Origin: Podospora anserina
Lineage: Eukaryota
Length of the DNA stretch: 64,000 bases
Reading direction: 5' to 3'
Assembly (NCBI GenBank): GCA_017654855.1
Contig: CM030333.1
Coordinates: 3,224,001 to 3,288,000, forward strand
Positions within the stretch are counted from its first letter, which is position 1. Every line of letters begins with the position of its first letter. Below the pieces are notes generated by a model, which was given only the letters and a program-made list of their open reading frames with translations, ran no database searches and was not told the DNA's origin. Of the stretch, positions 3,111-38,100 are shown piece after piece. Made by a program: the position numbers and the translations under genes.

Positions 3111-3835
3111 AATGAAATCTAAACCCACACTCCAATATTCAAAGTCTAAAATCTTGATTATATACACCTAGCTAGCTGCAGCGAAGAGTTGGCATGGTTG
3201 CCATGGGTGTGCACAAGGTAAAAGACCCACCAAAGCACTGAGCTTGGTGTCCAAGCGTAATAAAATGCCATGGCTTTGATCCCTCTTGCATTTCATATAG
3301 CGTACCATTCATCAAGGAATGAGTAGTCAGAACAAGTGAAAGGAATACGCTACAAAGCTGTACAAGTAGTAAAAGACTGTTGAACAAGTCGTGACCTATG
3401 TAACTGAACCTCTGCTACTACTAGAAAGTCAAAGACATGCCACTAGCAGCTGAGCCCTCTTCTAATGTGTTAGCTGTTTTAGCTCCATCCTCTGTCTTTT
3501 CTTTCCGCCGGCGATTCGTAAACCACTCCTTCGACTAACAACCAATAAGGAAGGCCGTGTATGCAATTACAATCAAACACGTCAAAGTAACCAAGAGAAA
3601 AGACAAGAAAACTGCAACAAAAAAAACCCAAATGCTACCTCCGATTGCCGTGTAGTTCCAGATGACATGCAGTGTGTGTATCCAGCCTCGATCCCTTTGC
3701 CGGGTGGTTATTCCCTGCCACTTGGTGACAAAAGTTCTCTATAAATTAACGAGAGTCTGGATAGGACCGCCGCATACTGTAGACGGTGTTTTGATCGGTA
3801 TGTCCAAACTGAGCTTTCTGAGGCGGATCCGTCGC

Positions 3836-10312: not shown

Positions 10313-12740
10313 ATGGCCAGGTGTGCACCTTCTCGTGGCCAATCGAAGGCTGACGACTCGAACAGAGTCCAAGTCTTCCATTACGAGCCCGATACTTCTG
10401 ATTCCTATTCGGATTCCTCCGACTACGTTGAACAAAATGCTCGTTCCCCCTCCTTTCTGTCTCGCGTGTTCAAACCGAAGAAGAAGTGGCAAGATGCCGC
10501 AGTTCAGGTTTACAAGCGTCACCAGGGCGACAACCTCTACATCCACAAAGTCCGTCTGCAAAGCCCACAGCTTAAGAAAGCCTTGAAAGGCCTTCTTGAG
10601 CGATATGGGTTGGTATACCGTGATGACAGTGTCATGGTTGAATCCCTCGCCCCGCATCGCGCCCTCTTCTTTGTGCGCCATCACGTTGCCGAGATTGCAA
10701 AGATGTCCAAAGACGACGAGACCCGCGCCCATTGCTCTTTGCTTAGCGGCATCATCCAGGAAATCTTCAAGGACAAATTCGAAGAGATTGAGACTCTCAA
10801 CAAGGAGGAGAAGATCACTTTCGAACTCTTGTGGACTCTCTACCCAGAAGGGAGCATCTTCGGCACCCAGCTTGCCGATGAAGTCCCCCGTGCCTACAAG
10901 GTCAACAAGATCACTCTTACCAAGGAGAAGGTAGAGATCAAATGCGAGACAATCATGTTCAGCGGTTACTCTTTCCGACGATACTTTTGGAACGTCGGTA
11001 TCGAGAGGTTCGATGGCGAGATTGACCGACTTCAGATACCAATCATACCGTATATCGACCTGGAATGCAATAGGGGGTTGCGTGATAGGCTGATTCAGCG
11101 TGGAAGGAAGGCATTGGACTTCCAGGTCCCAAGGTACATGGAGTATGACCCGGAGGCTTGCCGTCACGATGTGGTGGCTAGCCCGTGGGTTTGGAAAGGA
11201 TCAGACCACAAACTGGTACGTCAATTGTTATGCTGGCACAACTCTTCTCTTTTACTAATTGTGCTTTTACAATGCAGGAGAAAGAAAAGGTTGTTGTTGA
11301 CTTTTTCCTGGTGCGGAAGCGTGTCCCCTACCGCTTCGCCCATGAACTTCTTCCTGGGTACAATACCGGGACTCGCATGGGAGCCAAAAACTTCCGCAGA
11401 GCAACACCTGAAGAGATGGACCACAGCAGACGCGTGGTGATGAAGTCTGCTGACAACCTCCTGATTATGTCTCCTTATGTTTCAGGCTTTTCTCTTTCCA
11501 AGAGAACCTATGGTACGTTGAACCAGCTCCTAATCATTCACCGCCATGACGTTTCTAACATCCCTAGCCGACTTCGAGCTCGATGCGCTCAAGCCGATTG
11601 AATGCGACCGGAATGCGATGGAGAAGGTTATTTTCGACGATACCAAGAAGGCCATTCTCAAAACCCTGGTTGAGAACCAGAGGCTGACGGCCCAGAATCA
11701 GGATGGTCGTAAGCCACAATCACCTCATAAGTCCTTGATTTGCGGCTAACACGAGGGGCAAAATGAAGGCAACCGGGCCCTCGTAATCTCGATTTCCGGA
11801 CCAAGCGGTACAGGCAAGACTCTGCTGGCTGAATCTGGTATGTATCCCTAGAACTGAGTTCTCCTCAATCGACCTAACCAGACCTCCGGGGCTAGTGGCG
11901 GCGTTTACTGGGCAGCCACTCTTGAAGGACTGGGACATTTTGAGAGATACATTTGAGGAGGCAAGAGATTGGGATGGCTGTATCTTAGTTGAGAAGCCAT
12001 CATTGGGCCCTTTGCCAGCTCAGCTTGATGCAAATGGTAAGCAGCCTTCGTCTCTCATCGCATTACCCAACTCGCTTCTCATGGAAAATCGAAAAACTGA
12101 TGGATTTGACCGGAACTTCAAGCCTTCGTCAAAGAGCTCGAAAATTTTAATGGTAAGTTTACCCAGCACCCCAAGCTTGGAAGCTCGTCAGATCTAACAT
12201 GACGATTTCAATTTTGTAGGTATTGTCATTGTAACATCGCCAGACAGGCCATTTGTGTCCCCCGCCATAGCCTCCCGTGCGCAGCTTCATATCAACCTTC
12301 GCTATCCCAGTTTCTTCGAGCGAAAGCGTCTCTGGGAACTCTTCAATGACCAGCTCCCTAACGACGTTGGGAAACTGACCTCAAGTGAACTTGAGCTGTT
12401 GGCAGCTCATCCAACGAACGGTCATGCCATCAAGAACCTCCTTGATGTCTCCGCGGCATGGTACAGGTCGCTACATCGACCCATCAGCCTTGATATGATT
12501 GTCAAGCTCAGGGAACATACTGTTACTCCTGGTGGCGGTGGGCCGCTTCCACCGCCGCCACTTCCCCCCGGCATAGCCTGGCCATCTAGAGGCCCGGCTG
12601 TGCCTTCAGGAATGGGGGGAAGAGTTCGTGGTCCCCCGCTTGGACCAATCGGGACTGTCGTTTACACATCCCCGTCCAGCGAGTCAAAGAAGAAGGTTCG
12701 CAAATGCATACATGTCTCTGATGATGACAATGACAGCTAG
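10313..12740 (+). CDS. Fungal AAA+ ATPase-like protein, degenerate ATPase module, multi-exon
   Basis: Family N-terminal motifs (LQSPQLKKAL, ITFELLWTLYPEG, RDRLIQRGRK), Walker A GPSGTGKT at ~11798-11821, lid ASRAQLHINLRYP..ERKRLW. Confidence 0.8.
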
Positions 12741-13104
12741 TCGGAACAGAGCATCAGCACTCTCAGCTCCGATGATGACGACAAGGGTCTAGAATCTGAC
12801 TCGGATACTTCGCGCGATTGAGCTGGGAAATACCAGCGCAGGTTTTGGGATTTTCTTGTCACGAATGAATGAACGGTCGGCTTGGTTTCTGCTGCGCTAC
12901 ACGAGGGTAGGTAACTTTACTCGAACCATTTTCGCAGCTTTCATATTCATGTTTCTATTTATGATGTAACGAAACACTCTCAGTAAGCTAGGTCAATTCA
13001 AGGAGTATGTGAGATTGGCTGTTCTATCGCAGTGAAGTAAATCATCTTGGTGGATTAAGAAGTGGTCTGACGATGTTCTGAAACCTGTGTCAAGATAGAG
13101 TACC

Positions 13105-13280
13105 TTAGTTTTAAAGCTGAGATTGAAGGTAAGAAGGGGTTGGATCAAGTTGATGAAAAACTTAGGGTAAAATACCAGGAAGCTTGGATAAGGGACACAA
13201 AAAGCTTAGATTAATAAAAGAAAAGGTTGAACGATTGAAAGAGTAATAATTTTCATATAATATAAGTAAAATATTAAGGG
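13105..13280. repeat. Degenerate ~21-bp repeat, AT-rich relic; inverted relative of 2765-2905
   Basis: Units ttggatcaagttgatgaaaaac, ttggataagggacacaaaaagc, ttagattaataaaagaaaagg; TpA-rich with in-frame stops. Confidence 0.5.
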
Positions 13281-13583
13281 GTTGTGATAGGTGCGGTCAC
13301 CGTGGCAGTCCAGAACAATGGGTGCAATGATGATAAATTCTGGTGGAAGATCTAGTGCAAAAAGAGAGCTATATGTATGCCTGCTTGCCAGTGCCGTGCC
13401 AGTACCCTGCCTCCAAGTGTCCTAACAGGTTGCTTTATACGTTATGATATTGAATCCGACTCCCGCCTTTGTCAAAGTATATCACTTACTTTCGCCCCTT
13501 CTGCCCCTGAATTGCATTTGCGAAGCGTGCTCAATCTACTATAATAAGTGTCATTTACCTGCGTGAACGTCAATCACATGACA

Positions 13584-13690
13584 GGGAGCTTGGCTCAGTT
13601 GGAAGAGCGCAGGTCTCATACAAATGTATGATCTGGATGTCTAACACCAGAGTTATCCTGAGGTCGTGAGTTCGAGCCTCACAGTTCCCA
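13584..13690 (+). tRNA. tRNA-Met(CAT), elongator type, with intron ~13621-13654
   Basis: Acceptor GGGAGCT/AGTTCCC-A, D arm GCTC..GAGC, anticodon stem CAGG/CCTG with CT-CAT-A loop, T arm GTGAG-TTCGAGC-CTCAC. Confidence 0.95.
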
Positions 13691-14392: not shown

Positions 14393-15820
14393 TGTGGTGG
14401 ATGTTTGGTATGGAAAGTGATTGTTCTTGTCTTTGGTGATAGAGAAGTGTAGTAGTGTGATTATGATGTGGCTGCTGAGGGTGAGGGGGAGGAAAGAAAA
14501 GACTCAGATACTCGAGGCCAACCTGATCCTTTATAGAACCTCATTCCTCCTCACTTTCAACCTGCTCTCAACTTCATCACTCCCCTCCCCTCGGCTTCTT
14601 CTCCCCGTTCTTACTCCCCTTCCTGTAATTGCCTCCCATACTAAATCACCCTAGCGGCCAATCCACCATCTCCTCGGTCAACGGTGGAATTCCGATGCCG
14701 TAATTCCTCTTCCAAAAACACACCACCAAGCAGAACCCGACATTCCAGTCCCCTCTCCTATCACCCAGAGCCTTGTCTCTAGCTCACCCCTTGCATAAGG
14801 CTGCACCAGCCGACCCCATTAATAGAAGTAAGATCTGGGGTCCTCGCCCCATTTCCCCGGACCAACGCCTGCCGATCCAAGATCTTGTCTTACCAGAACC
14901 TTTGACATCGTGGCTCAGCAACCCACACCCCAATAATGCACAAGCAAACATGTCATCGCGGCTAGATTAAACCACCATATTCCCCAGCCCTTACACCCTC
15001 GGCGTTTCAAACAAAACAAACTCCAACCAAAACAAGGACCATCCTCCTATGCAACACCCCCAACACCAGCTTGGTACCGACGAGACAATAATAAAAGGCC
15101 ACAGAAGGCCTAACTTTACGAGTAAGCGTAAACTCATTGGCCCCCAAGCCCCAGCATTCCAACCCTGCGCTAAATGCGAACCGACACACCACCATAATCA
15201 TCGGCCTGGTATTTGTCCGCCAAGCCTCCTCTCTCAAAACAACCAAACCCTTCCCGTAGATCCTATGCACATGAAAAGATTGCAACGGAGGAAAAAACCA
15301 ACTTCATAAGCAAATTATCTCTGACCATACTCAAAAAGACACAGCCATTCTTTCATCAACCATGGCACCATCACGTCTCTAGAACTGCATTGACACCTAG
15401 CTGAAGAAAACCAATCCACCCTTTCCCCTTTCAAACAACAAAGTTACACAAAACATCAAAATCATGGTCGAGAAACCCTGGCGATATACTGACCCGAAAA
15501 TAAAATCAGATTCAAGGAAACCATAACCTACTAGCTTTGGCACCACCCTGACCCCAAAGCAGATAGCACATTGACCCACCATTCCCATTCCAATCATCCC
15601 TCTCTAAAGGCAAGACCAAGTAATCCAACCCCCCAAAGACCCAACCCTCACTCTCCGGCATGTCTCGAAAAAAAGAAAAGGGAAAGCCGCAGGTAACTAG
15701 GAAACGAAAATAGTCGGGTAATGGCTTCCGCCTGTCTAGGCGACACCGCCAGCAAAGCTCACCAATCTCCGGCTTCCCAACACCCTGTTCGCTGCAGAGG
15801 GCCTTCTTGGTGATTCGTCC

Positions 15821-22265: not shown

Positions 22266-24748
22266 GGAGTGTGTTGTGGATTACGGTATTGAAAAGAAAA
22301 GGAGGTGATTGTTACATAAGCAGTAGTTGTTGAATCTATAGGTGCAGCAGCTTCAAAAATCAGGGGAAACACATTCTTTTATTCAAATTTCTCAGCTGGG
22401 CCAATTTGTATTGATGCACACCAATGCAGTTAAGAGTTGGTTTAGATGCAAGTCTGACGCAGAGATGAGACTCCGTCGCCCTGCATAACAAGGAGATTTG
22501 AACGGTGCGGTACCTACAGTAGTGGTGTAGCATTGCTGCGTGTCAGAGAATCAAGCGTTGTTGTTCCACCCTAGCATGGAGCGGCTAGGGTAGGTATAAT
22601 AAATGTCCGAGATAAGGGGGTGTGATGAGGCGGGCATGGGGGTTAGCTTGGGGGAAAGTTTGGTGCGGGTGGCACGTTCTGGACAGGATAACTGGCACTG
22701 TGAAAGCAGGCAAATTATGCCTCAAAAGATAAATAGTCGATAGTCTTCAGATGGTAATCACTAGTCTTTTAAAGATAGTTGATGGGCCTTTAAAGATATT
22801 TGCAAGGCCTATTGACTTTCTTTCGTGGCATGGTTCCCCATGTAATAAGGGGCTAACTTACCTGGTAGTCTTGCTGTGCCAATCAATTGTGGTGAGGGTG
22901 TGGGCGGTTAGGTGCCGCTGGTGATGAGGGTGGTGTTGCATGGGTGGTGGGTTTCTAGAAGGGTTCTCTTGAGTTGGAGGTGGTGAAACTCATGTTTTGT
23001 GGGATGTTGCATTCATGGCGCGATGCGCATGATGTTGGCAAGGAAGACTACTGCAACTAAAAGATGACAGAGATCACGATGTTGGTTGCCGCTGTGGGCT
23101 ACTGCTGCTAGGCAACTGCGCTCTGAATGTATTTCAGGAGGTGGATGGTAGTTTGAATAAGGGGGTGGTTTTCATACAATGTGGAGATCATGATGAGGGT
23201 ATTGTCGAGGTATCGAATTTCATGTCTTGCGGCATCGAATTACTCGGGTTTATCAGTGCGGGAACAGGGAGCTGGGGATCGGCACGGGGGAGCTGGGTCT
23301 GGTTATTGTACGGTGTGGATGAGCGGAGTTAAATGGCGGTGGTTCTCATTTGAGTTGGTGATGAAGAGAGTCTCTTGGATATGGGACAAGATAATGTTGT
23401 GAGGGGTTGAAACTTTGCCGGGGTGAGAGACATCAGATGTGGGATGTGGCACCGCAGGCATATGAAGAAGTCACATCATCACACCCTCTCACACTGTGTT
23501 GGTTCTATCTCAAACCTGAGGAGGTATTGCATTGCGCGATGAGACACAAGGCCGCAGGAACGAAACGATCTATATGTATTTGGGAATATGCCTGTCTTAA
23601 GCCTTTTTCCTCTTCAAGACAGCCTCAGATCCTGGTCCCTGAGAACCGCAGTGTTGGAACCACCTTCCTCTTTGGGGGCTTCTTCTATGCAGCTTGGGGG
23701 ACGATAGATTAAATTTGACACGGTGCATGCTGAAGAATAGTCCCGACTCTATGGTTGAAGGCTACGGCTACGGGAGGAAATGGCACAGCAGCGGAGGTGA
23801 AGAGTCAAAGCACATGATCCCATATGGCTGGTGGATGGCTGATCAGGTTGGGAAAATCGTTATCAGTTCAAGTTGTCGTGTCTGGAGCCCCAGAAAATAA
23901 GCTTCTGCCAAGGCGGACAGAGTGGAGGACGCTAGGCTTTGCTGGGGACAGCCCTGTGGGGGTCTGGAGTGTGATCTCTTCTTGCCCAGAGAAAGCCGAG
24001 ACTGAACAAAGCAGGGAAGGGTATCCGGCAAGATAAGAAATTCTGTTCTGGGTGGTGGTTATAAAAAGAAGGATTCAACTTGCATATGAAGACCATCATC
24101 GAGTCTGGAGTGTGCTGCTCATGAAGTTGCCGCTCAACTGAGAGACACACTGGCCAAGCGGGGCAACAAGTGCACTGGCAGGTTACACAAGCAGGCTGTT
24201 CGTGATCCCGTCTTACCGCAGTTTTCCATCTGCTGGTGGACCTGTTGCCAAAAGTCGTCCAGCATTCGAAACGCATCTCTTCAGGCACTTCCAAAGTCCA
24301 CAAAACAACCTGTCAGATCAGGGCATGCTATCTCAGGAAGGAGTTGCGCCAAACCCGATAGGGCGGTTACCATCTTCTCAGCCAAGGCGGGCCTTTGAAG
24401 CAGGACATTTGCCAAGAGATAAGAAACTGGCCAATCACACAACACCGTTTCCCCGTGTAATCACGGGCTTGCTTGCTTCAACCCATCTTGCTCGCTAAAC
24501 CAGACCTCAGAGTGGTTGCATCGGTTGGGTTTTCATCCAGAATAAAGCACATGAATGACTTGTCGCCACGGATCCTCGGCTCCCAGGCACTGCTTCTATT
24601 GAAAGGCTGCAGGTCTTGGTTCTGTCTCTTTCTTGTTTGTCTGTCAGACGGGCAGAATATCGAGAGAGAATCCGCCTGCGGGGCGCCACGAGGGAGCCAA
24701 AGAAAGGCGGACGCATGGTTGATCATAGCGCTTGGTTCCTGGTGGAGC

Positions 24749-26066
24749 TGATAAGGATAAGCAAAGAGATGGCTGATTTCTGTTTCTCTTTCTAGTCGTG
24801 TGAAAATTCTTTTGTAATCCATATCAACACGGTCAAGATACACCGCTTTACGGGATGGGTTCAAAGGCCAATAGTTTAGCCTCTTATCTCTGGAATGGTT
24901 TTCTTGCTAAACAACAAACAAACGAGGTAAAGACAGCGCATCGGTCCATCCTCTATTCTCGATTTGTTCTAGAGGCCGGTACAAGTGATGTCGGAATGGC
25001 GGTTTCGGGCGTTTGTGGCGTCCAGTTTAGCCTCTGCCCTTACCCGTTGCCCGAGGAAGGCACATACATCACGGACTGCGCTCTCCGTTGGGCTGAGTTG
25101 GGTGAGGTTCACGGTAGAATATGTGTCTGGTACCAGTCCATGCACACGAAAATTGGCCTACACGATCGAGCCACTCAGTCGATCGAGTTGGCGAGAAATG
25201 TCACCTCCACGGTCGAATATACAGGGAAACACGCAGAGCCAGCCAGTCACTGCATGCAACCCTGCATCGGATCCACGCCTTGCAGTGACATGAGTGACTG
25301 CAGGCGGGAACGAGAGGCACAACCTGGGGAAGCGACCAATGATCAACAGGGTCCCAAAGACTGCCTGGCGTCCAAAAGTGTGGAATCCAATATCAAAATG
25401 GAAATTTGTAGACGCTCTCTTTCAGCTACATACACCTTCCCAAGAGAGGCCAAAAAATCATCATGGTAAAGATCAGCTGCAAAACGACAGCCTCACACCG
25501 AGTTTCATCAGGTGAGGTTGACGCTGTGAAACCCAAAATGGTGGAGTGAGAAGACATCATTGGCCCGTGTGTCCCAGCCCCACTCGATTTGGCAACCTCC
25601 TTCTTCCCCTCCATCAACCTTTCCGGCAAACCTGCCAGTGTCCGACCTCGCGATGCGGTAAACACCTTCACTTTCATGAGCCGAAAGAGACGAACCTAGC
25701 CCAACCACTTGGATTCATGCCATCATGATCGATAAGGTATACTAGTTTATTCTCGGTCTCTCCACCTTCGTACCGACTCCTCCACTTGACAGATCCGGCC
25801 TGACGATTTTGGGGGGGGGAAAGACACGATGCCAAGGCCCTACCCAGCGGGAAGCGTGCTGCTCGCCCGGATCAACACGGGACTCGGGAGTGGCAGGGAT
25901 GCAGAGGACAAGACAGACCCCCCACCAAACCGCTGAGAACGCCCAGCTCCTTATCAGTGAGACCCACCAATCCATTGAGCATGCAGCACCTTGGCGAGCA
26001 GAGCAGTCCTCCAGGAAGGGAATGGAGGCACTTCTGAGGGTGATAATGACGAGGATGGTCTTATCG
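24749..26066. promoter_or_regulatory. GATAA (AreA/NIT2-type) sites upstream of the ammonium transporter
   Basis: Tandem TGATAAGGATAAG 24749-24761; further GATAA/TTATC at ~24884, 25731, 25951, 26042, 26061. Confidence 0.45.
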
Positions 26067-26303
26067 CGGGACCTGCAAGGCTTCTTTGAGTCGGGAACCC
26101 CAGCTCGGCTCGGCTGTGATGGATGGGTGGTACCTACGACTCGAGAGTTGCAGTGTATTTTATTACCCTAGCCATCCCGCATGATCCAGGACTGAATCTT
26201 TCCTCTTCACTCTGCAGCCTGCCTTTCAACAAAGACCAGGAGCACCGGTCCTGGCCTCAGAGGGACAGACTCTCTACTTCGACTCCTCGACAAGTCTTTC
26301 ACC

Positions 26304-27850
26304 ATGTCGTCCTACAAAGTTTCCGAGTACGCCGGCCCAACGGAGATGGCCCACGAGGGCGTCAACCCCCTCTTGGAAGACATCAATGCCCCCTATTCGG
26401 CCGGTGATTTCGCCTGGATCATGACCTGCGCTGGTCTTGTACTGCTCATGGTCCCCGGTGTTGGTTTTTTCTACAGTGGTCTTGCCCGCCGCAAGTCTGC
26501 TCTGGCTTTGATTTGGCTGTCTTTGATGTCCATCGCCGTTGTGGGATTCCAATGGTTCTTCTGGGGTTACTCCCTGACCTTCACCCACAACACCGACGCC
26601 AGCCCCTTCATTGGCGATCTTTCCAACTTTGGTCTTATGAAGGTCCTCGGTCAGCCCAGTGTTGGCAGCTCCAAGATCCCCGATGTCCTGTTCTGCCTCT
26701 ACCAGGGCATGTTCGCTGCTATCACGTTCGTATCCTTCTTGGTCACCCTCCAGGTCCAGATCTTGCTAACTTGGTTTCCAGTCCGGCCCTCGCTATCGGT
26801 GCCGCTGCTGACCGTGGCCGCATGCTCCCGGCCATCGTCTTCATCTTTATCTGGGCCACCATCGTCTACGACCCGATTGCCTACTGGACCTGGAACCCCA
26901 ACGGCTGGTCCTTTGTCATGGGCGGTCTCGATTTCGCCGGTGGTACCCCCGTGCACATCAGCTCCGGCGCTGCCGCTCTCGCCTACTCTTTGATGCTCGG
27001 AAAGCGTACCGGCTACAACAAGGTCAACGGCCTCCCTTACCGCCCCCACAACGTCACCCACGTTGTTCTCGGCACAGTTTTCCTCTGGGTTGGCTGGTTC
27101 GGCTTCAACGGTGGTTCCGCCCTCGCTGCCAACACCCGCGCTGTCATGGCCTGCCTCGTCACTCAGATCTCTGCCTGCGTCGGTGGCTTCACCTGGTGCT
27201 TGCTTGATTACCGCCTCGAGAAGAAGTGGTCAACCGTTGGTTTCTGCTCTGGTGTCATTGCCGGTCTCGTCGCCATCACCCCCGCTGCTGGTTATGTTCC
27301 CCCCTGGTCGGCTGTCATCTTCGGTGTCTGCGGCGGTATCATCTGCAACTTTGCCACCAAGCTCAAGTTCCTGATCGGTATTGACGAGCCCCTTGATGTG
27401 TTCGCTGAGCACGGTGTTGGTGGTATTGTTGGCAACCTCCTCACTGGTATCTTTGCCGCGTAAGTCCCTTCCCCCGCTCCTCATTTTCAACATAAACTAA
27501 CGCCCCCCTCCAGTGACTACATCGCCGCTCTTGACGGCGCCACCGCCATTGACGGTGGCTGGGTCAACCAGAATTACATCCAGCTCGGCTACCAACTCGC
27601 CGATTCTGTCGCTGGTTTTGCCTACTCCTTTGTCATGACCTGCCTCATCTGCTTCGTCCTGAACCTCATCCCTGGCCTGTCTCTCCGTGTCAGCCCCGAG
27701 GTTGAGGAGATCGGTCTTGACGATGCTGAGCTGGGCGAGTTCGCGTATGATTATGTTGAGCTCAGCAGACACGTCAACGACGTTCTTGTTGGTGGCAGTG
27801 CCGCGGGCAGTGTCAAGGAGTCGAACGAGGCCCCTACCGAAAAGGTTTAA
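26304..27850 (+). CDS. Ammonium transporter, Amt/Mep family (MeaA-like N-terminus)
   Basis: PGVGFFYSGLARRKS, DFAGGTPVHI, LWVGWFGFNGGS, DVFAEHGVGG; introns ~26726-26782 and ~27460-27513. Confidence 0.97.
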
Positions 27851-28456
27851 GCGTTCTCGTGAGCAAAACCAAGTGTGACAAATTCAATAGACATTGGCAT
27901 GACTGGATCGTGCAACAAGGGGGTGTATAGTGGTGAGGTGGCGGCTCAATGGGAAGAGGGGCCTGTAATTTCATAGGGGATGGGCGAAGGATGTGATGGA
28001 TGGAATGATGATGAGGATGATGTGAAATATGGGATGTATTTTGGTTTGTTGGTGGGAAACTGTCCGAAACATGATACCTCTTTCTTTTGGATATACTCAG
28101 CGAGCGAAGGAGATACCAAGTTTATAATCTTTGAGATATATACCCGATACATATCACCATGCAGCGCGGCTTGACTTTCTCTTTGTGCATAATATCTCCA
28201 GGAGGAAAATATGGCTTTCTCTATGGTCCAGATGAACAACAAGCTCCATCTTGAAAGAGATATAACTAACAATGCCTGCCCTTTGACAGGCCGATCAGTA
28301 AGGAACACCTTAAATTTCTGTACACCTCCTACCAAGTCTCTCCCGATTGATTTTTTTAACCGCCGGCTTTCATGTACATGCCCAGATATATGAACAGCTT
28401 CCCCCCCTCATTGCACCTTCTAGTAAAATGATTCTACCATATGTTTTCAACCTCCT

Positions 28457-29308
28457 TTACAGAGCAGCAGCAACCCCAGCAGCAGCAACCACAACAGCAA
28501 CGACATACCCATTCTCCCTGGCAGCACCAGCAGTAGAAGCCGTCGTGCTAGTAACACCATCATCACCACCATCACCACCACCAGGCTGAACAGCCCCAAG
28601 TCCCAGACTAGTAACCTCCGCCCCCGAAGGCGCAGTCTTCAAACTATGCATCAACGAGAACCCCTCACTGCACTGTCGCTGATTGGTAGCCACAGCCAAA
28701 ACCGCCTGCCCCATCGCCCCGTTGTAAACGACAGTCTTGCACTCCTCCACCGCGGACTCCAGCGCACTGCCCGCATGTCGAGCCCACGAGGACCAGTTCA
28801 GCTTGTACGTTTCGTGATCGGCGGTTACAGAGGCAGGGACTGTCTGTCCGACCCAGCGGGATGTCTGCCATTGCGAGCAGAGGGTGACGATGTCGGCCGA
28901 GTTGATGGGGGTGTGCCCCGCGGCGGGGGAGGATGTGGCTAGGTTGGCGGTGACCCAGACGGAGAAGGAGGATTCAAAGTAGTCTCTCAGGGGCTGGCCG
29001 TAGGGAGGGGTGGGTTGGGCGTTGAGGATAGATTTGACTTCGTCGATGCAGGCGTCGCCCCAGGGGGCGTCAGAGAAATCGGGGGGAACCCAGGTGCTGG
29101 TGATGATGGCTATGGTGGAGTCGGCTACGCTGCTGGGGAGGGGAGTCCTGATGGGTGTTGGAGTGTCGGTTGTGGTGATGGGTTCTGTGGTGTCCTGGGC
29201 CAGGGCGAAAGGCGATGGCACCGACGAGGGGAAGAGCTTTGGTGAGATGTATTTTGGAGGTGAATGATCGTCAATCGAAGTGAAGATGTGTGAATGATGG
29301 TGATGCAA
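28457..29308 (-). CDS. GPI-anchored/cell-wall-type protein with disrupted signal peptide (possible pseudogene)
   Basis: T/P-rich N-region, 4-Cys core, S/T linker, TAGAAR plus hydrophobic C-terminus (VVAVVVAAAGVAAAL). Confidence 0.7.
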   Translation of the reverse strand: MHHHHSHIFTSIDDHSPPKYISPKLFPSSVPSPFALAQDTTEPITTTDTPTPIRTPLPSSVADSTIAIITSTWVPPDFSDAPWGDACIDEVKSILNAQPTPPYGQPLRDYFESSFSVWVTANLATSSPAAGHTPINSADIVTLCSQWQTSRWVGQTVPASVTADHETYKLNWSSWARHAGSALESAVEECKTVVYNGAMGQAVLAVATNQRQCSEGFSLMHSLKTAPSGAEVTSLGLGAVQPGGGDGGDDGVTSTTASTAGAARENGYVVAVVVAAAGVAAAL

Positions 29309-30339
29309 ATTGGCATGGCGCTCAAGGAAATTGGTTCTTTTGTATACGAGTCAACCCGTCACTGTCTTCTCCAAGTCTGTGGCTATGCACACATGCAGGG
29401 GCCAAGTGTAAGGAGAGACATGGTGTGAATGCCATAGTAACGGTAATGGGTTCAAATAAATTCGAAGGAATCCGTGGCAACATCCCATGGTTCCGTTCAG
29501 CTCCTCAGGCATCCTCAAAAATGCTTGTCCACCAGCTGGGGCCATAGTTGAGGAGTATGGTAAAAGGTAAGGTGCTTGGCTGCTCGTTCCTTCACAGTTG
29601 ACTGCTCCTTCCCTCATTATGAGTGGACCGCTCCTTCCTCTGACTTGAACCAGTGCCTGCCTGGGAAATTCAGGCCATGGGCCGCCCACTGACTGCTTAT
29701 TACCATTGGGAGTATTTAATATATAACACCAGTACGAGCCTCCTTTTACGATAATGACAAACCTTCTTGGGTATTCAGGACGTCCCATGTGACGTGATAT
29801 GATCTTTAGAAGCAGGAAAGAGCTCAAGTAACACAGAAGTATCGCCTCAATATGTGACTAACCCATTTATAGGCTATACTTTAGCTTTCATGGTTGCCAG
29901 TCAGGGAGCCAAATCCGAGATTTCTGATGCCGGGCAGACAGCAAAGTAGCAAAGTAAAGGAGGAAGATGGCTTGATCTTGTGTGCTGCTTGGGATGTGGC
30001 CCCCTATCTGTCGGAGGACTCATGTATAAGCCGACCAGAATAACAACTCATACCCTCACCCAACAAAGTATCTACCGAGAAACAGAGGAGGGCATCGAAC
30101 ACAGGAGAGCATTGTCAAGCCTTTATCATCAGCCTTCACACATGTCACCCTCGCCAGCCGCCTGAGCTCAAAGCCTACCCCCAACAGTCACCCGGACATC
30201 CGTTTAAACTTCCACCACATCACCACCGCACCGCCGCTACAACGCCATCACCCAGCACATTTCACCACAAACCCACCACAACCACACAATCCACCCCATA
30301 TAACCGCCCTTTCCGCAACAACCAGCACCCGAACCATTC

Positions 30340-30653
30340 ACTCATTCAACCCAGCCCAGTCAGGTTGGCCCCCTGTCTGGTCAGTTTGGATGAGGAGTAG
30401 GTTCAAGGGAGCTCGGTACACCCTCTCGGCTGGCCACCGAGAGACTGTGTGTTCGATCCCTCGAAGTAAAGAACCCCCTTTGAGGGGCTTTTCGTAGCCA
30501 GAATCACCTCCGCTCCCACCTCGTGGAGGCTTTCCCCCAGTGTGAGGCCTCCCACAGTCTCCCACAGTCTCTCGCAGTGTTCCAGTATGAGACCGGGTTG
30601 GAGTCTAAGCCCTCCGGGTTAGGAGGGTCGTGAGTTGACTGGTGAGCTTTTTT
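30340..30653 (+). ncRNA. Unassigned structured non-coding RNA candidate
   Basis: Closing stem CCAGTCA 30356 / TGACTGG 30636, several GC hairpins with G-U pairs on the + strand, TATAA 30299, B-box match GTTCGATCC 30451, T6 at 30648. Confidence 0.55.
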
Positions 30654-31493
30654 GACGTTTTTGTGGCCTGTGAGGTTCTTTTTGGTTCAGATTACAACGA
30701 AACCACTGAGCACGAGAGGGTTATGTAGAGTCTGGGGATGCTCTCACTTATCGAACCTAGTATTTGATCTTTATACCTGCAGAAATCTTATGCGGAACAC
30801 TTGCATTGAGATGACAGATGAAATGGCTGACAGAGACACATTGTTTTGCTGACTGCATACTAGTGTCAGTGGCACCTTTTTCCACTTGTCTAGACCGTTC
30901 ATCGTAGATCGTATGGATTTTACATGGTGCCTTGAACCAAGCAAGGCTTTTCAGCCCACGGTGCTGCCGCCATGCCTCCATCGTCCTCAATCTCACCACC
31001 AAGCATTACAACCAAGCAGGCAGAAACTTGCTTCCGAGGAAGACGCCATTCCTTTTCTTTTACGAGATGTTCTTATAAGCTTCACCATGTCACGAGAGGA
31101 AGTTAAATTGCATCTTCAAGACCCTCATCCCCGCTTTGCCATCCCCCTGGTGCAATAACTTGGCTCTCAAAACCCCGGGAGTTGGTAAGACTGTATTCTC
31201 AGTCAGCAGGAGGCCTGAAAGGCAAGAGGGCAGCAGTCGAATTAGAGATTACCACCACCTAGTTCAAAACTCGATCCCAGAAAGTCATCTCCAGTATTCA
31301 CTGTCATGCTCGTTTTAGTGGTGTATATCCCAAAATATGTTGGTCTAGAGATCCCATATCTACAAACCCACACCGATCCGCAACCCTTTTACTCTTGTGT
31401 GCACAAGTCATAGCCCAACGCCAATGCCCATGCAAATCCCTTTCCCCATTCCAATGCCCAGCACCAAACTCCTAAATATAACCATGCCTCAAA

Positions 31494-32910
31494 TCACAAC
31501 GCCCCACCAAACCTTCCAAAGGACGAATCCTCCTCCTTCTTCACCTTCGTCCCCCCAAAGGGCTCCTCCTTTTTCACCATCGGTCCCCCAAACGGATCCT
31601 CCTTTTTCACCATCGGTCCCCCAAACGGATCCTCCTCCTTCTTCACCGTCATCTTCCTCTTCTTGGCACTATGCCCCAAATCACCCCCAAAAATATCCCC
31701 ATCCTCCTCCTTCTTCACCTTCTTCCCACCCCCAAGATCATCTTCATCATCCGAGTCCATCTTCTTCGCCGCCTGTTCCCTCCTCACCCTCTGCAGCTCC
31801 ACCAAATTCCACCGTTCCGGGTCCTTGCACTTGAGAAGCTTCTTCCGCAGGGGCGTGATCTGAGTCTTGATGACTTGTTTCTATCACACAATGTTAGCAT
31901 TCCCTTCACAACAGAAGAAAGAAAAGAAGAAAAAAGAAACAAACATTAAGCCAGTGATCCTTCCTCTCAGGCAACTCCCTACTCAACATATCCCTACACC
32001 CCTCAATAGCCCCCAGCACCTTATCCCTAATCTGACTCCCAATCACCCTCGCCTTTTCCTCATTTCCCTTGTTGTTATCACCCCCTCCCCCCCCGGGGGT
32101 ATCATTCCCCTCCGCCGCCACAAAATGAAACGTCTCCTGAATCAACCTCTCCGCCAACCCCCTATCCGCCAAACTCAACGCAGCAAGCATAATCTGGCTC
32201 GGCGTGTAATGAAAGTACGCATCCGTCATCAACGGACTAAACTGCAGCACCTTCCTCGCCTTCGCCTCCGCCTCATCCAACCTCTTCAAGTCCTTCTGCA
32301 TATCCGGCAAACTCGCCAATTCCATCATCGCCCCCCGAAGCGCACGATAAGGGTGCTTAACATCAAACGCGAACCTCAACCCCTGACACAGAAGAAACTC
32401 CCCCGCGAGGATCTCCTCGGCGGATTTATTGAAGATTTTAGTATACTCCGCCAGATTGACATGTCCCGTGTCGACCTTGCACGCAAAAAACAGCGCGACA
32501 AAAAACATTTCCGCCGGCGGGTACGTCATGATGCTGTTTGTGATGTAGAACCTCTTTAGGAACATGGCGGCCGTGGCTTTGATCTCGTCCGCGTAGTGGA
32601 GGGCTTCCGACGCGCGGAGGATTTCCGAGGTGTAGTACCCCACCAGCGTGAGCTCCTCTGCTGGAGTCAAAAACTCCGGTAGGGCCGGTGTGCTGTTTCC
32701 GTCTGGGTCGGGGGTGTTGGCGTTGGAGGTTGGGGCCGAGAGGTCCTGCTTTGATGTCGAGACGGGGAGTGGGTGGGAAAGTAAACGCTCGGAAATCCTC
32801 GCGCGCGCGGCGGCGTTGGTCTTTTCGCGGAGGGCGCTGAGCTGGGTTGGGGAGAAGGACCAGAGACGGTATTGCGAGGAGTCACGGTAGCGCGCGTCTT
32901 CGGTTGCCAT
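31494..32910 (-). CDS. CCL1: Cyclin H (TFIIH/CAK cyclin)
   Basis: YRDSSQYRLWSF, FLTPAEEL, ATAAMFLKRFYITNS, EFLLCQGLRFAFDVKHPYRAL, TDAYFHYTPSQI; intron ~31945-31882. Confidence 0.93.
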
Positions 32911-33339
32911 GATGGGCAGTCAGAGCCGTCTTGACGGATCGCAAGCTCGTGGATATGTTCGACTGTTTTAGTGTTTGGTTGGTCGATCGCTCGATTCGGG
33001 ATTTTCAGGTGGGAAGTTGAAGCTTTCTGATTGCTTAGTAAAGCGCCATTTACAAACTCGCGAAACGTGGGAGACCGCTGCCACGACACAAAGGCGCGAA
33101 CGTTGTCGTTGACGTCCAGGTCGTTCCTGCTGCTGGCAAAAGTCAAGGTGAGCTTCGGTCCCCTTGGCGGTCAAATGCTCTGGCGGGGCGCTCACCTCGG
33201 TGAAAATGCCCCACATCAGATCTTGGCTTTGCAGGGGCCAACGCAACGCTGTGGCGGGTCTGGCCGTTACCCCTGTCCATTTCCAACCTCACTCCAACCT
33301 CTCCGATTTCATCACCCAAAAGCAACAACACAATCACCC

Positions 33340-33373
33340 ATGTCATCAGTGTCATCAGTGTCATCAATGTCAT
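33340..33373. repeat. 9-bp minisatellite (TGTCATCAG) x~3.5
   Basis: tgtcatcagtgtcatcagtgtcatcaatgtcat. Confidence 0.7.
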
Positions 33374-33684
33374 TTCATAGCTCTCTAACTATACTCTGAA
33401 GGCCCTTCAGGATTGTACCGAGCCTGCCTTTCTACAATAGCTTTTAGGATCCCTAAACTGATAACGCCTTCTCAACTTTGCGGATCCAGCCCACGAAAAG
33501 CCAACCAAGAAGAATGCGACACCAGACGCCAACCAGACTCGTTCCTTGACCGATATTTCCTGCCGCTATAAAATCCACATAACACGTATCCCACAATGCA
33601 TCATTAAGTTCCCGGGGCTGAGAGAGCCCATTTTCACCGCCTCATAACCACACGCATCATGTCGCGTCACCCTACCCGGAACAT

Positions 33685-35129
33685 CTAGTAACCAACCTCC
33701 CGTCTCGCTGGTACTGGAGGAGCAGGCTTCTTGGATCTGCTCGGAGGAGGCGGCGGTGGAGCCTTCTTCACGACAGGATAACTAGACGTGCGTGTAAGAC
33801 TCGCGCTCCCTACACTGGTGGCGGGACTTGAGCTACGGCCCCAATCCGGGCTTCCCGTATCGCTCGTGTCGTCATCCCGGTCACCAAACACATCGTCCTT
33901 GGTGGTCACGATCTTGTTAACAGGGCGCAACTGGCCACGCAAGTTGCTGACGTTGGGGATGTTTTGGTTGACGCCGTACACCGAGCTTGGAGTGCTGGCG
34001 CCGGATATCCGACCTCCGCCGATACGCTCCCGCTCCAGACTCGCACCGCCCTGGAAAGTACTAGCTCTGCTGATGGTGGGGCGAACCGTACCGTCTTGCT
34101 GATTTTGAGGTTGAACTGGAAGGCCGATACGTCCAGTACGAGACGCAGGCATGCGGACAGGTGGTGCGCTCGATTCGGTCTCGTCGGACTCGTAGATCTT
34201 CTGGCTGCTCACCCGAGGAGCACGCTCAGAGAAGCTCTGCGCCGTATTCGACCTGGCACGGCCGGTTGTTGGGCGCCGTTCGATACTGCCATATGTGCTC
34301 ATGCCTCCGGGTGCCGGTGCTCCTGGCCAGTTTTGGCGAACACGTCTGAGTTCCTCGGCACACCGCTCATGGTAGTCGAGCTCGGCGTCCAAGAACTGCG
34401 TCAAATCCCGTACGCTGTCGGCTTCAGCATCCCGAATGTCCTGCATACGGCGCCCAACGTCCTCGGAAGATTCCTCGTATTTGGCCTTGGCGGCGCGAAG
34501 CTCGTCGTCGATTCTGAAGTCATCTCGCTTGGCCTTCTGGGACTTGGAGATGCTGGCGTCATACGCAAGGCGGCGGTTCTCGAGCTTCTTGCGGGCAGCC
34601 TGTGCAAAAACAATTGGTTAGACACAGGTTCATGGGGAAGCAAGCGGTAGTTGTGTACGAACCTGATACTCCTTCATCATAGCCAGCGACCTCTCCAGCG
34701 ACTCCAGCCAGGTTGTTGTGGCCTCCCCAACATAAGCCTCCTGGATTGCGGAAACCCTCTCGTTGGCCCGACCCATCGTTATGAGGCAGTTGCCAAAGTC
34801 GGAGTCTGGTTGGAACTCCTCGCCGTGTGCAACCATTGTGCGGCCCAGATAGGCAGCTGGGAGTCCCTTCTCTCTGTCTTCCGCAGCCTCGACACGGCGG
34901 CCAACCCATTTGACGTATTGATTCATTGACCTTTGGAGGCGTTCCATGCCTGTGTCCTGTTAGTACGAGAAGCTCTCTTCGGAGTGTGATGGGAAACCTC
35001 ACCCTCAAAACGAAGAGCCATCTCCATTTCGAGCTGCTTGAAGTCATCAGACATGGTAGTCTTTGCTTCACTGCCCATCTTCTCGCCGGCCCATTGGAAG
35101 GCGCGGTCGAACTTCTTGCCAATATTCAT
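33685..35129 (-). CDS. Endophilin/Mug137-like BAR-domain protein with proline-rich tail, 3 exons
   Basis: FQWAGEKMGSEAKTTMSDDFKQLE, MKEYQAARKKLENRRLAYDAS, LTQFLDAELDYHERC; C-terminal PPPPPP. Confidence 0.88.
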
Positions 35130-38100
35130 GATGAGGGTCTGGTGTGTACGTTGTAGATGGCGGTATAGGTGAGTATGTGCAGATGAGGAAAAAGAGGAGA
35201 AATGTCCTATCAGCAGTGGGACAGATGGCGGATAGTGTCCTTATGGGTGTCTCCCGGTGGAAATTGCCAGCGCACAGCTCGGCTGCTCCAACCTCTTGAA
35301 TTAGTCGTGGTGGTTGGGTTGGGGTGTGGTATCGGTAATGAGTGACGTTTCTCCGTGTTACAATGACGGCAGCCGATTAAGAAAGGCAAAAGGTTGGGAA
35401 GCACTGCTTCGGGACGGGAACAGGGTCCTATGCAGTCGAGGAAGGCGAATAAAAGAGAGGCCAGAGGTATAGTCTGGAAAAAGAGAGTATGGGCTCTGAT
35501 ATATATTCAATGGCCGCGAGACAGATTTGTACCGTACCGTCCGTCCCTCTTGATTGCGAAACTCGTCAAAACGGGTGAATTGGAATCCTGTAGCTGGTCG
35601 CTAGGAACAGGGGTCCGCCGAACCCAAGCGGGCCAGGGGCCACTCACACCCTGAGCGGTGGCTGCAGAGCGCTAAACATGCAACTACAGGGGGGTCCCAT
35701 CATCCATGCCCACCAACAGCTGACCCGCGGACCTGGGGTATCAGTCTGTTATCAGCGGGTGCGGAATCTCTCAATCATGAATGATCGATGTTTCCCATTC
35801 TGCTGGTTGCCCAGACACGGCCACATCTCGGACAACTTTGTCGACGCAATATCGGATGAAAGTGGAAGCTGCAGCGTGAAATCACTCTCATGCCGCCTCG
35901 ATATGGAAGCTGCAATGGCTTTGCGGACCGTCGACAGCAGAAATCACCAGACACCTTCCACTTACCTCACCGTCCTTAAATTCTCACATGTAAATGGAAC
36001 CAGCATCTAGACGCGCGACTGGTGAGAAAGGCTTCTGTCCTAAAATATCAAGGCACCCGTTCCCTAGACTGATTCGCCCCATCGAAACGCTTGCTGGCAC
36101 GCTTGCTATGGTAGCACACGAGAGGCCCATTCCCCTGACCAGCTGTTGCTGCTGTGGGACTGTGGACTGTGGACACATTGAATGGAGACCTGTCACTTGT
36201 TGGATCTGGATGTCTTGGGATGTCTCCGAAGACATCTGCACGATTGACAGGGTTCCCCGTTGCTTTCTGGGCGTCTGGCTCCCAATCGACCAACCCACTT
36301 GTTGAGGCGCAGCAGTTTGTGCGTCGCGTTCAACTCTTCTTGCTTCCCCCATCTACCGGCCATCAATGAGTCGATTGCTGTTCACAAGCACATCCAGATA
36401 CGAGCTATTCGCACCGAATAAGAGCCGGACCCAGTGAATATACTTGAGATGATGATCCGGTACCATTTCCGCCAACACGCCAGTTCTGGTGCCACCCACA
36501 CCAGCATGCAACCTGTAGGTCGATATTGAGAGGAAGCTCTTCCTGCATCCGACACAAGAGCCACCTGCTTGGGCCAGAATAGCCTGAAATCGTTACAGCA
36601 TGCTATTCAGCGACCACCCACCATCACAATCAAGTCTAGGCCCTCACTACATTCCAACATGGTGGATGGTCGGCCCGAGCTCGGGCGTATTGGTGTGGTG
36701 CTGATAACAAGTCGCTGATGCTCTTGCCGTTGTTCCTCTACGCCTTCCGACTGCCGCCCCGAGGGGGTGTTTGCAGGTGATCATCGTCTTCTTCCAGAAA
36801 AAGAATCCTTTCACGATCGGAACCATTGGCCAGCAGAATGGCAGATCCGGGGCAATCGTAGCGCCAAAAACTAAACGCCGGAGAGATCCGCCATCCGCCG
36901 TCAATCATGGCCCAATTCATACCAAATCCTCAGAGCGCCTGGCCAGATCTGAAACAGCACTTGAAAGCCAGTTGCAAGGTCCCCGTCTCTTCAGCGCTGT
37001 TTCAGCCTTGCCTTGTCAATCTCCAATCGACTTTCATGCCTTCAGTTTGAAGCCTCAGTCTCTGAGAGCCAATTGAAGCTGTCTTTGATCCCTTTGACGC
37101 CCTGACGATCAGAAGCCAACCAATTACTCGGGGGGTTCCGATTGACTTGTGGTTGACTAACAGGGTTTATTTTTAGACCAAATGACACCACCTATGACAA
37201 TGACGCTTGCGAAACACCGTCACCGTGCTTGGACAGTCATGGAAGCTAGAGAAAACCAAATGCTCAGTGATGGAGTCATTGGACATGCGGCTGCAGTTTG
37301 GATTTGTCCTCCACCAATGCTCTTTGATTCACTTTCCCTCTTTGAAGTCCAACATTTTCCCAGTTTCCCAACTTCAAAACAACCCACACTTGGCGCCAAA
37401 CACAAGCCATTCAAACCTCCCCTTCCCATTTCGCTTCCGTCGATCTCACGTTCTCATCCAAACCGATGGGTCATCTGTCTTCAATGCGACAACTCCACAA
37501 AATACATGGTGACGTTTCAATGCACTTGGTGTCTTTGAAAAACAGTGGGAGCGGAAAAGCCAAGACGTCTCCGCCTCTCCGCCTCCGTTTCCCGTCCCAA
37601 AGTGTCAACCCCGTAACCATGTGACCCTCCTCTCCGACTCCGTACATACTTTTCGGATGCCGAGCCAAGCGTTCGGAGGACCCGTCAAATATACCCAGTG
37701 CCCAGTGATACTGATGTAGACAATGGCGAGGCCCCTTAAACCAAAATATAATACCCCCCTTTCCATACCTGGCCTAGCCATTGACGTTTAAGGGGCCATC
37801 TTCATCCATCGCTGACTGCTCTCAAATACACCACGTGAGTTGGTCGACAGCGCCTAGGGAACATCGCTCACTCGGGCACTATTTCCCAGGGCAAGAGATG
37901 CTGGCGAGCTACATGAAAGAAGCCATCGGTGTACTTTACATTCGGTTATGACCTCCAATACTTCCCAGCTACCACATGGCAAAACAAGTGGTAAAATTGG
38001 GAGTAATTTCAAGGCCGTGATGTGAACTTTGATGAAAACTTCCAGATAGCCGCCACACGCTGCAGGCCCAGGTATATAACATGGGTGGACATGACTATGA

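Follow-up and report, generated by a model that had tools for sequence, protein, structure and literature searches.

Hairpin-rich non-coding DNA next to cyclin H in Podospora anserina shows a few traits of a small RNA gene

Results

Gene context and coding potential

The window, that is, the whole 64,000-nt stretch of Podospora anserina DNA that was analysed (assembly GCA_017654855.1, contig CM030333.1, positions 3,224,001 to 3,288,000, forward strand), contains a gap in which an earlier sequence-only reading had placed a structured RNA gene with Pol III-like signals, at 30297–30655. On one side of the gap lies the cyclin H gene (31288–32910, minus strand; Cyclin_C_2 at 1.6e-31), whose 3′ end faces the candidate. 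On the far side is a 297-codon open frame (28457–29350, minus strand), which has no in-frame ATG near its start and shows a weak match to DUF7735 (E 0.03, below cut-off).

The gap had been described as gene-free, and this holds in the ORF, spliced-ORF and Pfam checks; the candidate has no coding potential. ATG-started ORFs of at least 25 aa within 29850–31300 have GC3 values of 0.38–0.64, compared with 0.72 for cyclin H; the longest of them, at 81 aa, has a GC3 of 0.44 and no Pfam match. No spliced ORF of note was found, the best being two minus-strand ones of 102 and 82 aa and a plus-strand one of 72 aa. A protein search for translated relatives of a 75-codon minus-strand ORF returned no match, the query itself included.

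None of the 24 public runs listed over 30297–30700 was given as RNA. Four sequencing runs were compared over 26000–35000. Three of them (X5, X21 and X23) are low-depth DNA runs, and the fourth, X24, proved to be RNA, because its contigs skip two GT..AG introns in an ammonium-transporter gene. The X24 contigs fall on 26000–28104 and 31288–35000, covering 31288–31593 and 31945–33120 on the cyclin H side, and none falls on 28107–31287, which for one run available as contigs only is no evidence either way.

Sequence elements of the candidate

All motifs listed in the earlier reading were found where that reading had placed them. Going 5′ to 3′ on the plus strand, the first element of interest is TATAAG (30025–30030), which may act as a Pol II-type TATA element. 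It stands just 5′ of a C/A-rich, G-poor tract (30040–30350; A 32%, C 41%, G 12%, T 15%; GC skew −0.40 to −0.48) whose composition resembles that of a plus-strand 5′ leader or core promoter in fungi. The word TATAA follows at 30299–30303, 42 nt upstream of the base of the first hairpin; the plus strand of the 64-kb window contains this word 36 times.

The first hairpin (30341–30394, plus strand) is built from an outer stem (30341–30347/30388–30394) and an inner stem (30356–30364/30372–30380), and the A-box-like word TGGTCAGTTTGG is read at 30378 on the same strand. Next comes a long imperfect hairpin (30406–30461), which folds more stably as minus-strand sequence, with the B-box word GTTCGATCC at 30451 (plus strand). 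The region 30459–30529 (plus strand), enclosed by the 12-nt pairing described below, can form inner hairpins at 30459–30485 and 30507–30529 and a weak one near 30486–30499, and the small hairpin proposed at 30475–30490 was also confirmed. Further downstream lies a G+C-rich hairpin (30609–30628, plus strand) with a 7-bp stem and a 6-nt loop. The proposed closing stem joins TGACTGG (30636–30642) to CCAGTCA (30356–30362), and the inner stem of the first hairpin occupies the same bases. Beyond it, at 30648–30683 on the plus strand, three T runs (T6 at 30648, T5 at 30658 and T5 at 30679) form a cluster that may serve as a terminator for Pol III or as a promoter tract of the poly(dA:dT) type.

A rare inverted repeat and a unique cluster of T runs

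The candidate had been credited with a 10-bp triple repeat able to pair in two ways. The alternative pairing is real: 30438–30449 is perfectly complementary, over 12 nt, to 30563–30574, a right arm that is contained in the tandem repeat, and it also pairs over 9 nt one repeat unit earlier. The left arm has its alternative partner within the long hairpin. The repeat (30549–30578) does start at 30549, but only two of its copies are perfect and the third has diverged, Tandem Repeats Finder reporting 2.3 perfect copies at 30549–30571.

Perfect inverted repeats of at least 12 nt with a spacer of at most 150 nt occur twice in the 64 kb. One is the pairing just described; the other, at 37730/37786, likewise lies in non-coding DNA, where nothing else points to a gene. 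Considered as a repeated binding site, CCACAGTCTC is not enriched outside the repeat (10 matches with at most one mismatch against 5.45 expected, and 7 of 100 shuffles contained as many), and the window holds no second copy of the candidate.

The T runs at 30648–30683 are also rare as a group. Among the 54 plus-strand and 68 minus-strand runs of at least five T in the 64-kb window, they are the sole set of three to fall within 45 nt, whichever strand is considered, and there is no run of at least five T inside 30333–30647. The inverted repeat and the cluster, each independently rare, are 75 nt apart. This proximity counts against an ordinary spacer; its chance comes to about 0.02 by our own rough arithmetic, which is not a tool output. 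We also weighed whether a 21-nt direct repeat at 30238/30693 (76% identity) could be a target-site duplication, but rejected it as low-complexity similarity, because several repeats like it occur in the C/A-rich tract.

Folding energy and strand preference

The stretch had been called highly structured, with the proviso that a folding energy no better than that of dinucleotide-shuffled controls would speak against an RNA gene. As a whole it gives no global fold signal, and the description does not hold for the complete molecule: the 287-nt RNA 30356–30642 has a z score of −1.47, with 11 of 200 shuffles folding as well. Plus-strand folds with other bounds gave z −1.18 for 30350–30650 (14 of 100 shuffles as good) and −2.10 for 30333–30652 (3 of 100). 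The whole molecule (z −1.2 to −2.1) is thus close to the shuffled level, whereas parts of it beat the shuffles; an energy clearly below the dinucleotide shuffles on one strand was seen for sub-stretches only. The 7-bp closing stem depends on the bounds as well, being present in the fold of 30356–30642 but replaced in that of 30333–30652 by the hairpin 30356–30364/30372–30380.

There is no strand preference either. G-U pairs had been said to favour the plus strand; over 30350–30650, however, the minus strand folds at −117.4 kcal/mol versus −115.8 kcal/mol for the plus strand, and over 30333–30652 the two energies are −124.4 (minus) and −125.6 kcal/mol (plus). The minus-strand whole-stretch folds have z scores of −1.49 and −1.47. 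For the long hairpin (folded as 30404–30463) the plus strand gives −24.8 kcal/mol (z −2.43, 4 of 200 shuffles as good) and the minus strand −29.1 kcal/mol (z −3.55). Equal folding of the strands and the higher minus-strand stability of the long hairpin agree with an inverted repeat at the DNA level rather than with selection for an RNA from one strand.

Three further sub-stretches folded better than nearly all of their shuffles. The segment 30607–30630, which contains the hairpin 30609–30628, reached −14.0 kcal/mol (z −3.47, none of 200 shuffles as good); 30504–30532 gave z −2.77 (3 of 200); and 30434–30580 gave z −4.28 (none of 200) for bounds picked after the repeat had been seen. In a scan of 150-nt windows along the plus strand, 30300–30449 alone stands out, at z −3.3. 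The other such windows within 30250–30500 range from −0.8 to −1.6 (−0.8 to −1.5 for those from 30350 to 30500), and those outside are near zero or positive, with positive values from 30550 on. A background scan of 296 windows had a mean of −0.01, a standard deviation of 1.18 and 1% of its values below −3; three windows fell under −3.3 (−5.4, −4.5 and −4.3) and gave z −5.5, −3.9 and −3.4 when re-folded against 200 shuffles.

Possible Pol III signals

At the gathering level, Rfam finds a single RNA in the whole window, a tRNA at 13584–13690. Its gene has TATAATAA 44 nt upstream of the first base, close to the 42 nt that separate the candidate's TATAA from its first hairpin. The geometry from TATA word to T run also resembles that of this tRNA gene, an observation in favour of the earlier reading.

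The TATAA, the A-box-like word, the B-box word and the T6 run are all present as had been noted, but the argument drawn from the two boxes is unsupported, their matches being at chance level. The word GTTCGATCC has a second plus-strand occurrence at 55786, where the context is not that of a tRNA, and the full 11-nt B-box pattern GGTTCGANNCC has no match in the 64-kb window. The candidate shares with tRNA and type-2 Pol III genes an upstream TATA word at similar spacing and T runs downstream. Unlike them, it lacks a cloverleaf, and its T-arm word cannot form a T stem. No tRNA was detected at the candidate, either by Rfam up to E 10 or by ARAGORN, which also missed the window's intron-bearing tRNA that Rfam found.

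Comparison with known RNA classes

Rfam was searched at E up to 10 over 29900–31000 and 28900–31500. No model of Rfam 15 (SRP, RNase P/MRP, U1–U6, U3, snoRNAs, riboswitches and others) matched at its gathering score, and the strong Rfam hit that, in the earlier reading, would have taken away the novelty did not appear. The matches below that level were a mir-1420 match at the first hairpin (22.5 bits versus a gathering score of 70, at noise level), a mir-241 match (17.4 bits versus 63) that lies outside the candidate, and a truncated Afu_190 match in the narrower search that was gone in the wider one. By-eye comparison with consensus sequences gave no signature of H/ACA snoRNA, SRP, RNase P or MRP RNA, which we take as a lead only.

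SRP RNA (7SL) is similar to the candidate in its length of about 300 nt and, for the 30333–30652 fold, in having a 5′ hairpin domain, a rod that closes distal hairpins and a 3′ U run. It differs in that the candidate has no match to the Rfam SRP models even at E 10 and no visible helix 8 signature, which is a GNRA loop with an AGCA motif. In filamentous fungi, the template of telomerase RNA is complementary to the TTAGGG repeat. Neither CCCTAA nor TTAGGG occurs in 27501–32000.

The candidate was also set against the Pol III-transcribed microRNA-like (milR) genes of Neurospora crassa. In the available text of PMC3547838, these genes are mostly intergenic and non-repetitive, milR-1 to milR-4 have in common a T stretch just downstream and TATA-like elements, and milR-1 is without an A or B box. 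The candidate is similarly intergenic, non-repetitive and hairpin-forming, and has a TATA-like element upstream and a T stretch after its structured part, the latter two present as words only; like milR-1, it has no convincing A or B box. Unlike the milR T stretch, which in the same text comes directly after the hairpin, its T run lies about 190–250 nt past two miRNA-like hairpins. A by-eye comparison of 30297–30700 with the milR-1 to milR-10 primers in that text revealed none of them. The milR genes are moreover marked by small RNAs of defined size from one hairpin arm, Argonaute association, Pol III occupancy and loss on Pol III inhibition, whereas the candidate is known from its sequence alone.

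Comparison with fungal relatives

Twenty fungal metagenome loci, collected through cyclin H (P0001) at 49–62% protein identity, served as the comparative set. No look-alike of the candidate was found by blastn, nhmmer or a covariance model in these 20 loci and the rest of the window (256,070 bases). With the candidate and the whole gap as queries, blastn and nhmmer gave a single 19-nt chance match in the 20 loci (E 0.64), and a single-sequence covariance model of 30434–30580 (R1) matched only itself.

Gene order on the candidate side of cyclin H is kept in none of the 20 loci, as synteny breaks directly after cyclin H. In L001 and L009 a convergent gene lies no more than about 600 nt from cyclin H, and L017 is rearranged there. 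When the 5 kb downstream of cyclin H from seven loci and the window were compared all against all, no block in common with the window appeared. Paired T or A runs were absent near cyclin H in the nine loci whose downstream DNA was inspected for them. Rfam detected three tRNAs, all far from cyclin H, in the seven long loci (105,538 bases). Because the loci are distant and non-syntenic on the candidate side, this comparative negative weighs little.

Discussion

The hairpin-rich non-coding stretch beside cyclin H presents a few of the features typical of a small RNA gene. Since nothing that was run shows it to be one, we prefer for now to regard 30297–30655 as ordinary non-coding spacer whose hairpins stem from a small tandem and inverted repeat, a reading that we hold tentatively and at somewhat below even likelihood. 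The spacer would separate the 3′ end of cyclin H from the region upstream of the next open frame on the minus strand, and its hairpins would mainly be by-products of DNA-level events. A 10-bp unit would have been duplicated in tandem, with an inverted copy of the unit 113 nt upstream, and the duplication and the inverted copy together would yield both the perfect 12-nt pairing and the 'two alternative folds'. On this reading the repeats would have originated by slippage or template switching, and no discrete, stable RNA would be made from the stretch. The other small hairpins may be the expected yield of G+C-rich (58%) DNA of such length, the T-run cluster and TATA-like words may be A+T-rich elements of the kind common in fungal promoter regions, and the C/A-rich tract 5′ of the stretch may be leader-like or core-promoter-like DNA.

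That the strongest pairing includes the tandem repeat, a typical mutational product, counts for the spacer. Intergenic repeats generated by slippage or template switching would share with it the 10-bp tandem array with a nearby inverted copy and the equal folding of the strands, and the window's other 12-nt inverted repeat is also non-coding. What sets the candidate apart from such repeats is that it adjoins the only T-run cluster of the window, 3′ of a TATA word, and this the spacer reading leaves as a coincidence.

The main alternative, possible but less likely, is a lineage-specific small RNA gene of about 320 nt, transcribed by Pol III from the upstream TATA across 30333–30652 on the plus strand. 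The transcript would begin near 30333 and terminate within the T6 run (30648–30653). The proposed RNA would comprise a 5′ hairpin (30333–30402) and a 3′ domain of three or four small hairpins closed off by a long helix that builds on the 12-nt pairing, and its 3′ U tail would pair with AAGGGAGCUC at 30404–30413. It could be a structured RNA or, by analogy with the Pol III-made precursors of Neurospora milRs, one that is cut into microRNA-like small RNAs. The spacing from TATA to start, which matches that of the window's tRNA gene, is consistent with such a gene, as are the rarity of the 12-nt pairing, the unique T-run cluster placed right after the last helix with no T run of at least five inside, and the folds of 30333–30652, 30300–30449 and 30434–30580 (the last with post hoc bounds). 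Against it stand the weak global fold without strand preference, the chance-level box matches, the lack of any relative in the searches above, and a start point that was set after the TATA word had been seen. In addition, hairpins alone are a poor predictor of milRNAs, because fewer than half of the 1727 published fungal milRNA loci meet basic standards, according to the available text of PMC9757828.

The earlier interpretation, an uncatalogued RNA that may be a Pol III transcript or milRNA precursor, draws some support from the TATA-to-T-run geometry and from the two rare features 75 nt apart. In the most far-reaching form of this alternative, which we consider doubtful, the stretch would encode an undescribed lineage-specific RNA of about 320 nt with a TATA-only Pol III promoter; its 5′ part would fold into a miRNA-like hairpin and its 3′ part into a domain of several hairpins in which GAGAGACUGUG can switch between two pairings. 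Such an RNA would be either a structured RNA of a new kind or a precursor of microRNA-like RNAs, made by Pol III and additional to the known Neurospora set.

Rather improbable, in our judgement, is a plus-strand Pol II transcript, either non-coding or a long leader with tiny ORFs, in which the hairpins would be incidental or regulatory and no discrete gene would exist. From a start after the TATAAG at 30025–30030 it would cross the C/A-rich tract and stop in the U-rich region past 30648. The TATAAG and, after it, a 310-nt tract with a plus-strand G content of 12% point in this direction, and comparable G-poor tracts lie directly 5′ of the ATGs at 13949 (plus strand) and 22032 (minus strand) in the window. 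Only short ORFs follow downstream, of 7, 35 and 11 codons, the 35-codon one alone passing the listing threshold of at least 25 codons. However, the G-poor tracts at 2751–3150 and 13051–13350 are not followed by a listed same-strand ORF of at least 120 aa, those at 31351–31800, 48101 and 58851 fall in opposite-strand coding sequence, and the gap offers no notable spliced ORF.

A relic of a small mobile element, either a tRNA-derived SINE or a miniature inverted-repeat element with the 12-nt arms as its ends, is highly improbable: the perfect, terminal-style inverted arms around 113 nt and the B-box-like word would suit it, but a second copy is absent from the 64 kb and from the 20 fungal loci, no target-site duplication is visible next to the arms, neither a cloverleaf nor a tRNA-related 5′ part with A and B boxes was found (Rfam tRNA up to E 10; ARAGORN), and a contig from the low-depth DNA run X5 (record 28) is unbroken over 29609–30834, which is weak evidence against a dispersed repeat.

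With the spacer as the preferred reading, the main value of the stretch is at present cautionary. In G+C-rich fungal spacers, chance can be expected to supply a chain of plausible hairpins, a TATA word and words that resemble boxes, and neither the whole-molecule fold, nor the strand comparison, nor the box frequencies separate this stretch from its background. Truly rare here are the 12-nt inverted repeat and the T-run cluster. If the Pol III-transcribed RNA were real, it would add a TATA-driven transcript without A or B boxes to a very short list in filamentous fungi, and it would represent a compact case of an RNA with two mutually exclusive folds.

Genomic setting and relatives

The candidate RNA gene (30297–30655) sits within a non-coding gap some 1.4–1.9 kb long. 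The DNA is fungal and nuclear, having spliced introns of the GT..AG type and a gene for cyclin H. The latter (Cyclin_C_2 match, 1.6e-31) is on the minus strand with its 3′ end facing the gap, and is covered by RNA contigs at 31288–31593 and 31945–33120 from X24, a single RNA run represented by contigs. The other side of the gap holds an open frame of 297 codons (28457–29350, minus) that matches DUF7735 weakly (E 0.03). An in-frame ATG is missing near its start, as is any obvious upstream splice donor; its first exon may have gone unrecognised, or it may be a pseudogene. Part of its product is rich in Ser/Thr/Pro, and the C-terminal tail is hydrophobic. An ammonium-transporter-like gene, so named by reading its translation, occupies 26304–27850 (plus), with introns at 26726–26781 and 27460–27513 confirmed by a spliced X24 contig.

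Neither the ORF listing nor a spliced-ORF search found coding potential in the gap. ATG-started ORFs of at least 25 aa in 29850–31300 have a GC3 of 0.38–0.64, as opposed to 0.72 for cyclin H; the longest is 81 aa (GC3 0.44), and the best spliced products, 102 and 82 aa (minus) and 72 aa (plus), are not convincing.

No Rfam family matches the candidate, so the novelty claimed for it is not removed by a strong match. At the gathering level the whole window returned one tRNA and nothing else. At E ≤10, the gap gave a score resembling mir-1420, an Rfam microRNA family, on the first hairpin (30341–30394; 22.5 bits vs 70), together with two further noise matches. A telomerase template is absent, and a tRNA-like fold was found by neither Rfam nor ARAGORN. 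The window’s tRNA gene (13584–13690, plus) bears an intron, scores 51.3 bits in Rfam, was missed by ARAGORN and has only T4 runs downstream.

Related DNA was sought by scanning metagenomes with cyclin H, yielding 20 loci (protein identity 49–62%). In none of the 20 did blastn or nhmmer detect anything resembling the candidate or the gap, and a single-sequence covariance model searched over 256,070 bases found no look-alike either. This absence is weak evidence, since the order of genes is conserved on cyclin H's far side and broken directly after it; the loci are non-syntenic on this side and offer no orthologous spacer to align. At two of them (L001 and L009) a convergent gene lies roughly 600 nt from cyclin H, and a third (L017) is rearranged there. 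L001 (2439–2830) and L009 (11790–12170) share a gap-free island of 78–92% identity between cyclin H and this convergent, Lys-rich gene on the other strand; the island is flanked by divergent, indel-rich DNA and probably represents shared 3′ UTR elements.

Pairing and folding energy

Every word and stem listed by the sequence-only reading was found in place when the sequence was checked. The 7-bp stem said to close the RNA (30356–30642) is present; however, a better local hairpin (30356–30364/30372–30380) competes with it, and displaces it when the fold includes the 5′ flank. The 10-bp repeat starting at 30549, described as triple, consists of two perfect copies and a third that has diverged. 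The alternative pairing proposed is real: 30438–30449 is perfectly complementary to 30563–30574, and over 9 nt also one repeat unit earlier. This 12-nt perfect inverted repeat is one of only two in 64 kb (spacer ≤150 nt), and its helix encloses three or four small hairpins; the module so closed scores z −4.28, with bounds chosen after the repeat was seen. The other repeat (37730–37797, arms at 37730 and 37786, including GTTTAA/TTAAAC) is in non-coding DNA.

The whole-molecule fold does not, or only barely, exceed chance. Thus, 30350–30650 gave −115.8 kcal/mol on the plus strand (z −1.18, 14/100 shuffles as good) and −117.4 on the minus (z −1.49, 5/100); 30356–30642 gave −113.4 on the plus strand (z −1.47, 11/200); and 30333–30652, from the TATA to the T6 run, gave −125.6 on the plus (z −2.10, 3/100) and −124.4 on the minus (z −1.47, 8/100). 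The argument that G–U pairs favour the plus strand fails, because it is the minus-strand version of the long hairpin (30406–30461) that is the stabler (−29.1 kcal/mol, z −3.55; plus strand −24.8, z −2.43).

Among plus-strand 150-nt windows, 30300–30449 alone stands out (z −3.3); the others lying between 30250 and 30500 range from −0.8 to −1.6, and beyond these limits the scores are near zero or positive. In a background of 296 windows from the first 29.5 kb (mean −0.01, sd 1.18, 1% below −3), three score lower than the candidate’s best (−5.4, −4.5 and −4.3; −5.5, −3.9 and −3.4 when re-folded with 200 shuffles). Of these three plus-strand segments, 12501–12650 is G+C-rich, very stable (−82.3 kcal/mol for 150 nt, z −5.49, 0/200 shuffles as good) and much more structured than the candidate, and includes a perfect 13-bp hairpin with arms of the GGTGGCGGTGG and CCACCGCCGCC type; 22701–22850 (z −3.90, 0/200) contains a long, nearly perfect A+T-rich hairpin; and 15001–15150 has z −3.40 (2/200).

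Transcription signals and competing explanations

A TATA-driven Pol III RNA of about 320 nt is a possible, though rather doubtful, explanation. TATAA (30299–30303) lies 42 nt upstream of the base of the first hairpin, and the window’s tRNA gene has TATAATAA 44 nt upstream of its first base. At 30648–30683, 75 nt from the 12-nt inverted repeat, lie T6, T5 and T5 runs; nowhere else on either strand do three of the 122 T≥5 runs fall within 45 nt, and 30333–30647 has none. The internal boxes proposed earlier fared poorly: the B-box word turns up again at 55786, outside any tRNA context, the 11-nt B-box pattern matches nowhere in the window, and the A-box-like match is loose. Among the Neurospora microRNA-like (milR) genes, milR-1 to milR-4 have in common TATA-like elements and a stretch of T immediately 3′, milR-1 relies on its TATA-like elements without an A or B box, and the genes are mostly intergenic and non-repetitive (PMC3547838). 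The candidate’s anatomy is compatible with theirs. Fewer than half of 1727 published fungal milRNA loci satisfy basic standards (PMC9757828), so that hairpins without small-RNA data are weak grounds.

A Pol II non-coding transcript running through the stretch is unlikely, but is kept in consideration by TATAAG (30025–30030, plus, by sequence reading) and the leader-like, C/A-rich plus-strand tract of 310 nt (12% G) that follows it just upstream of the candidate. Comparable G-poor tracts stand directly 5′ of the start codons at 13949 (plus) and 22032 (minus); against this, other such tracts of the window have no listed ORF after them. A mobile-element relic is highly improbable, given that no second copy exists within the 64-kb window and that one DNA contig of a low-depth data set is continuous over 29609–30834, which counts weakly against a dispersed repeat.

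We therefore rank first, at somewhat short of even odds, plain spacer in which a small tandem and inverted repeat gave rise to the hairpins. The fold as a whole, the comparison of strands and the frequencies of the box words do not rise above background, which also speaks against the Pol III RNA, and the strongest pairing involves the tandem repeat. What plain spacer explains incompletely, and what favours the Pol III RNA, is the coincidence of a rare inverted repeat, a unique T-run cluster and a TATA at tRNA-like spacing.
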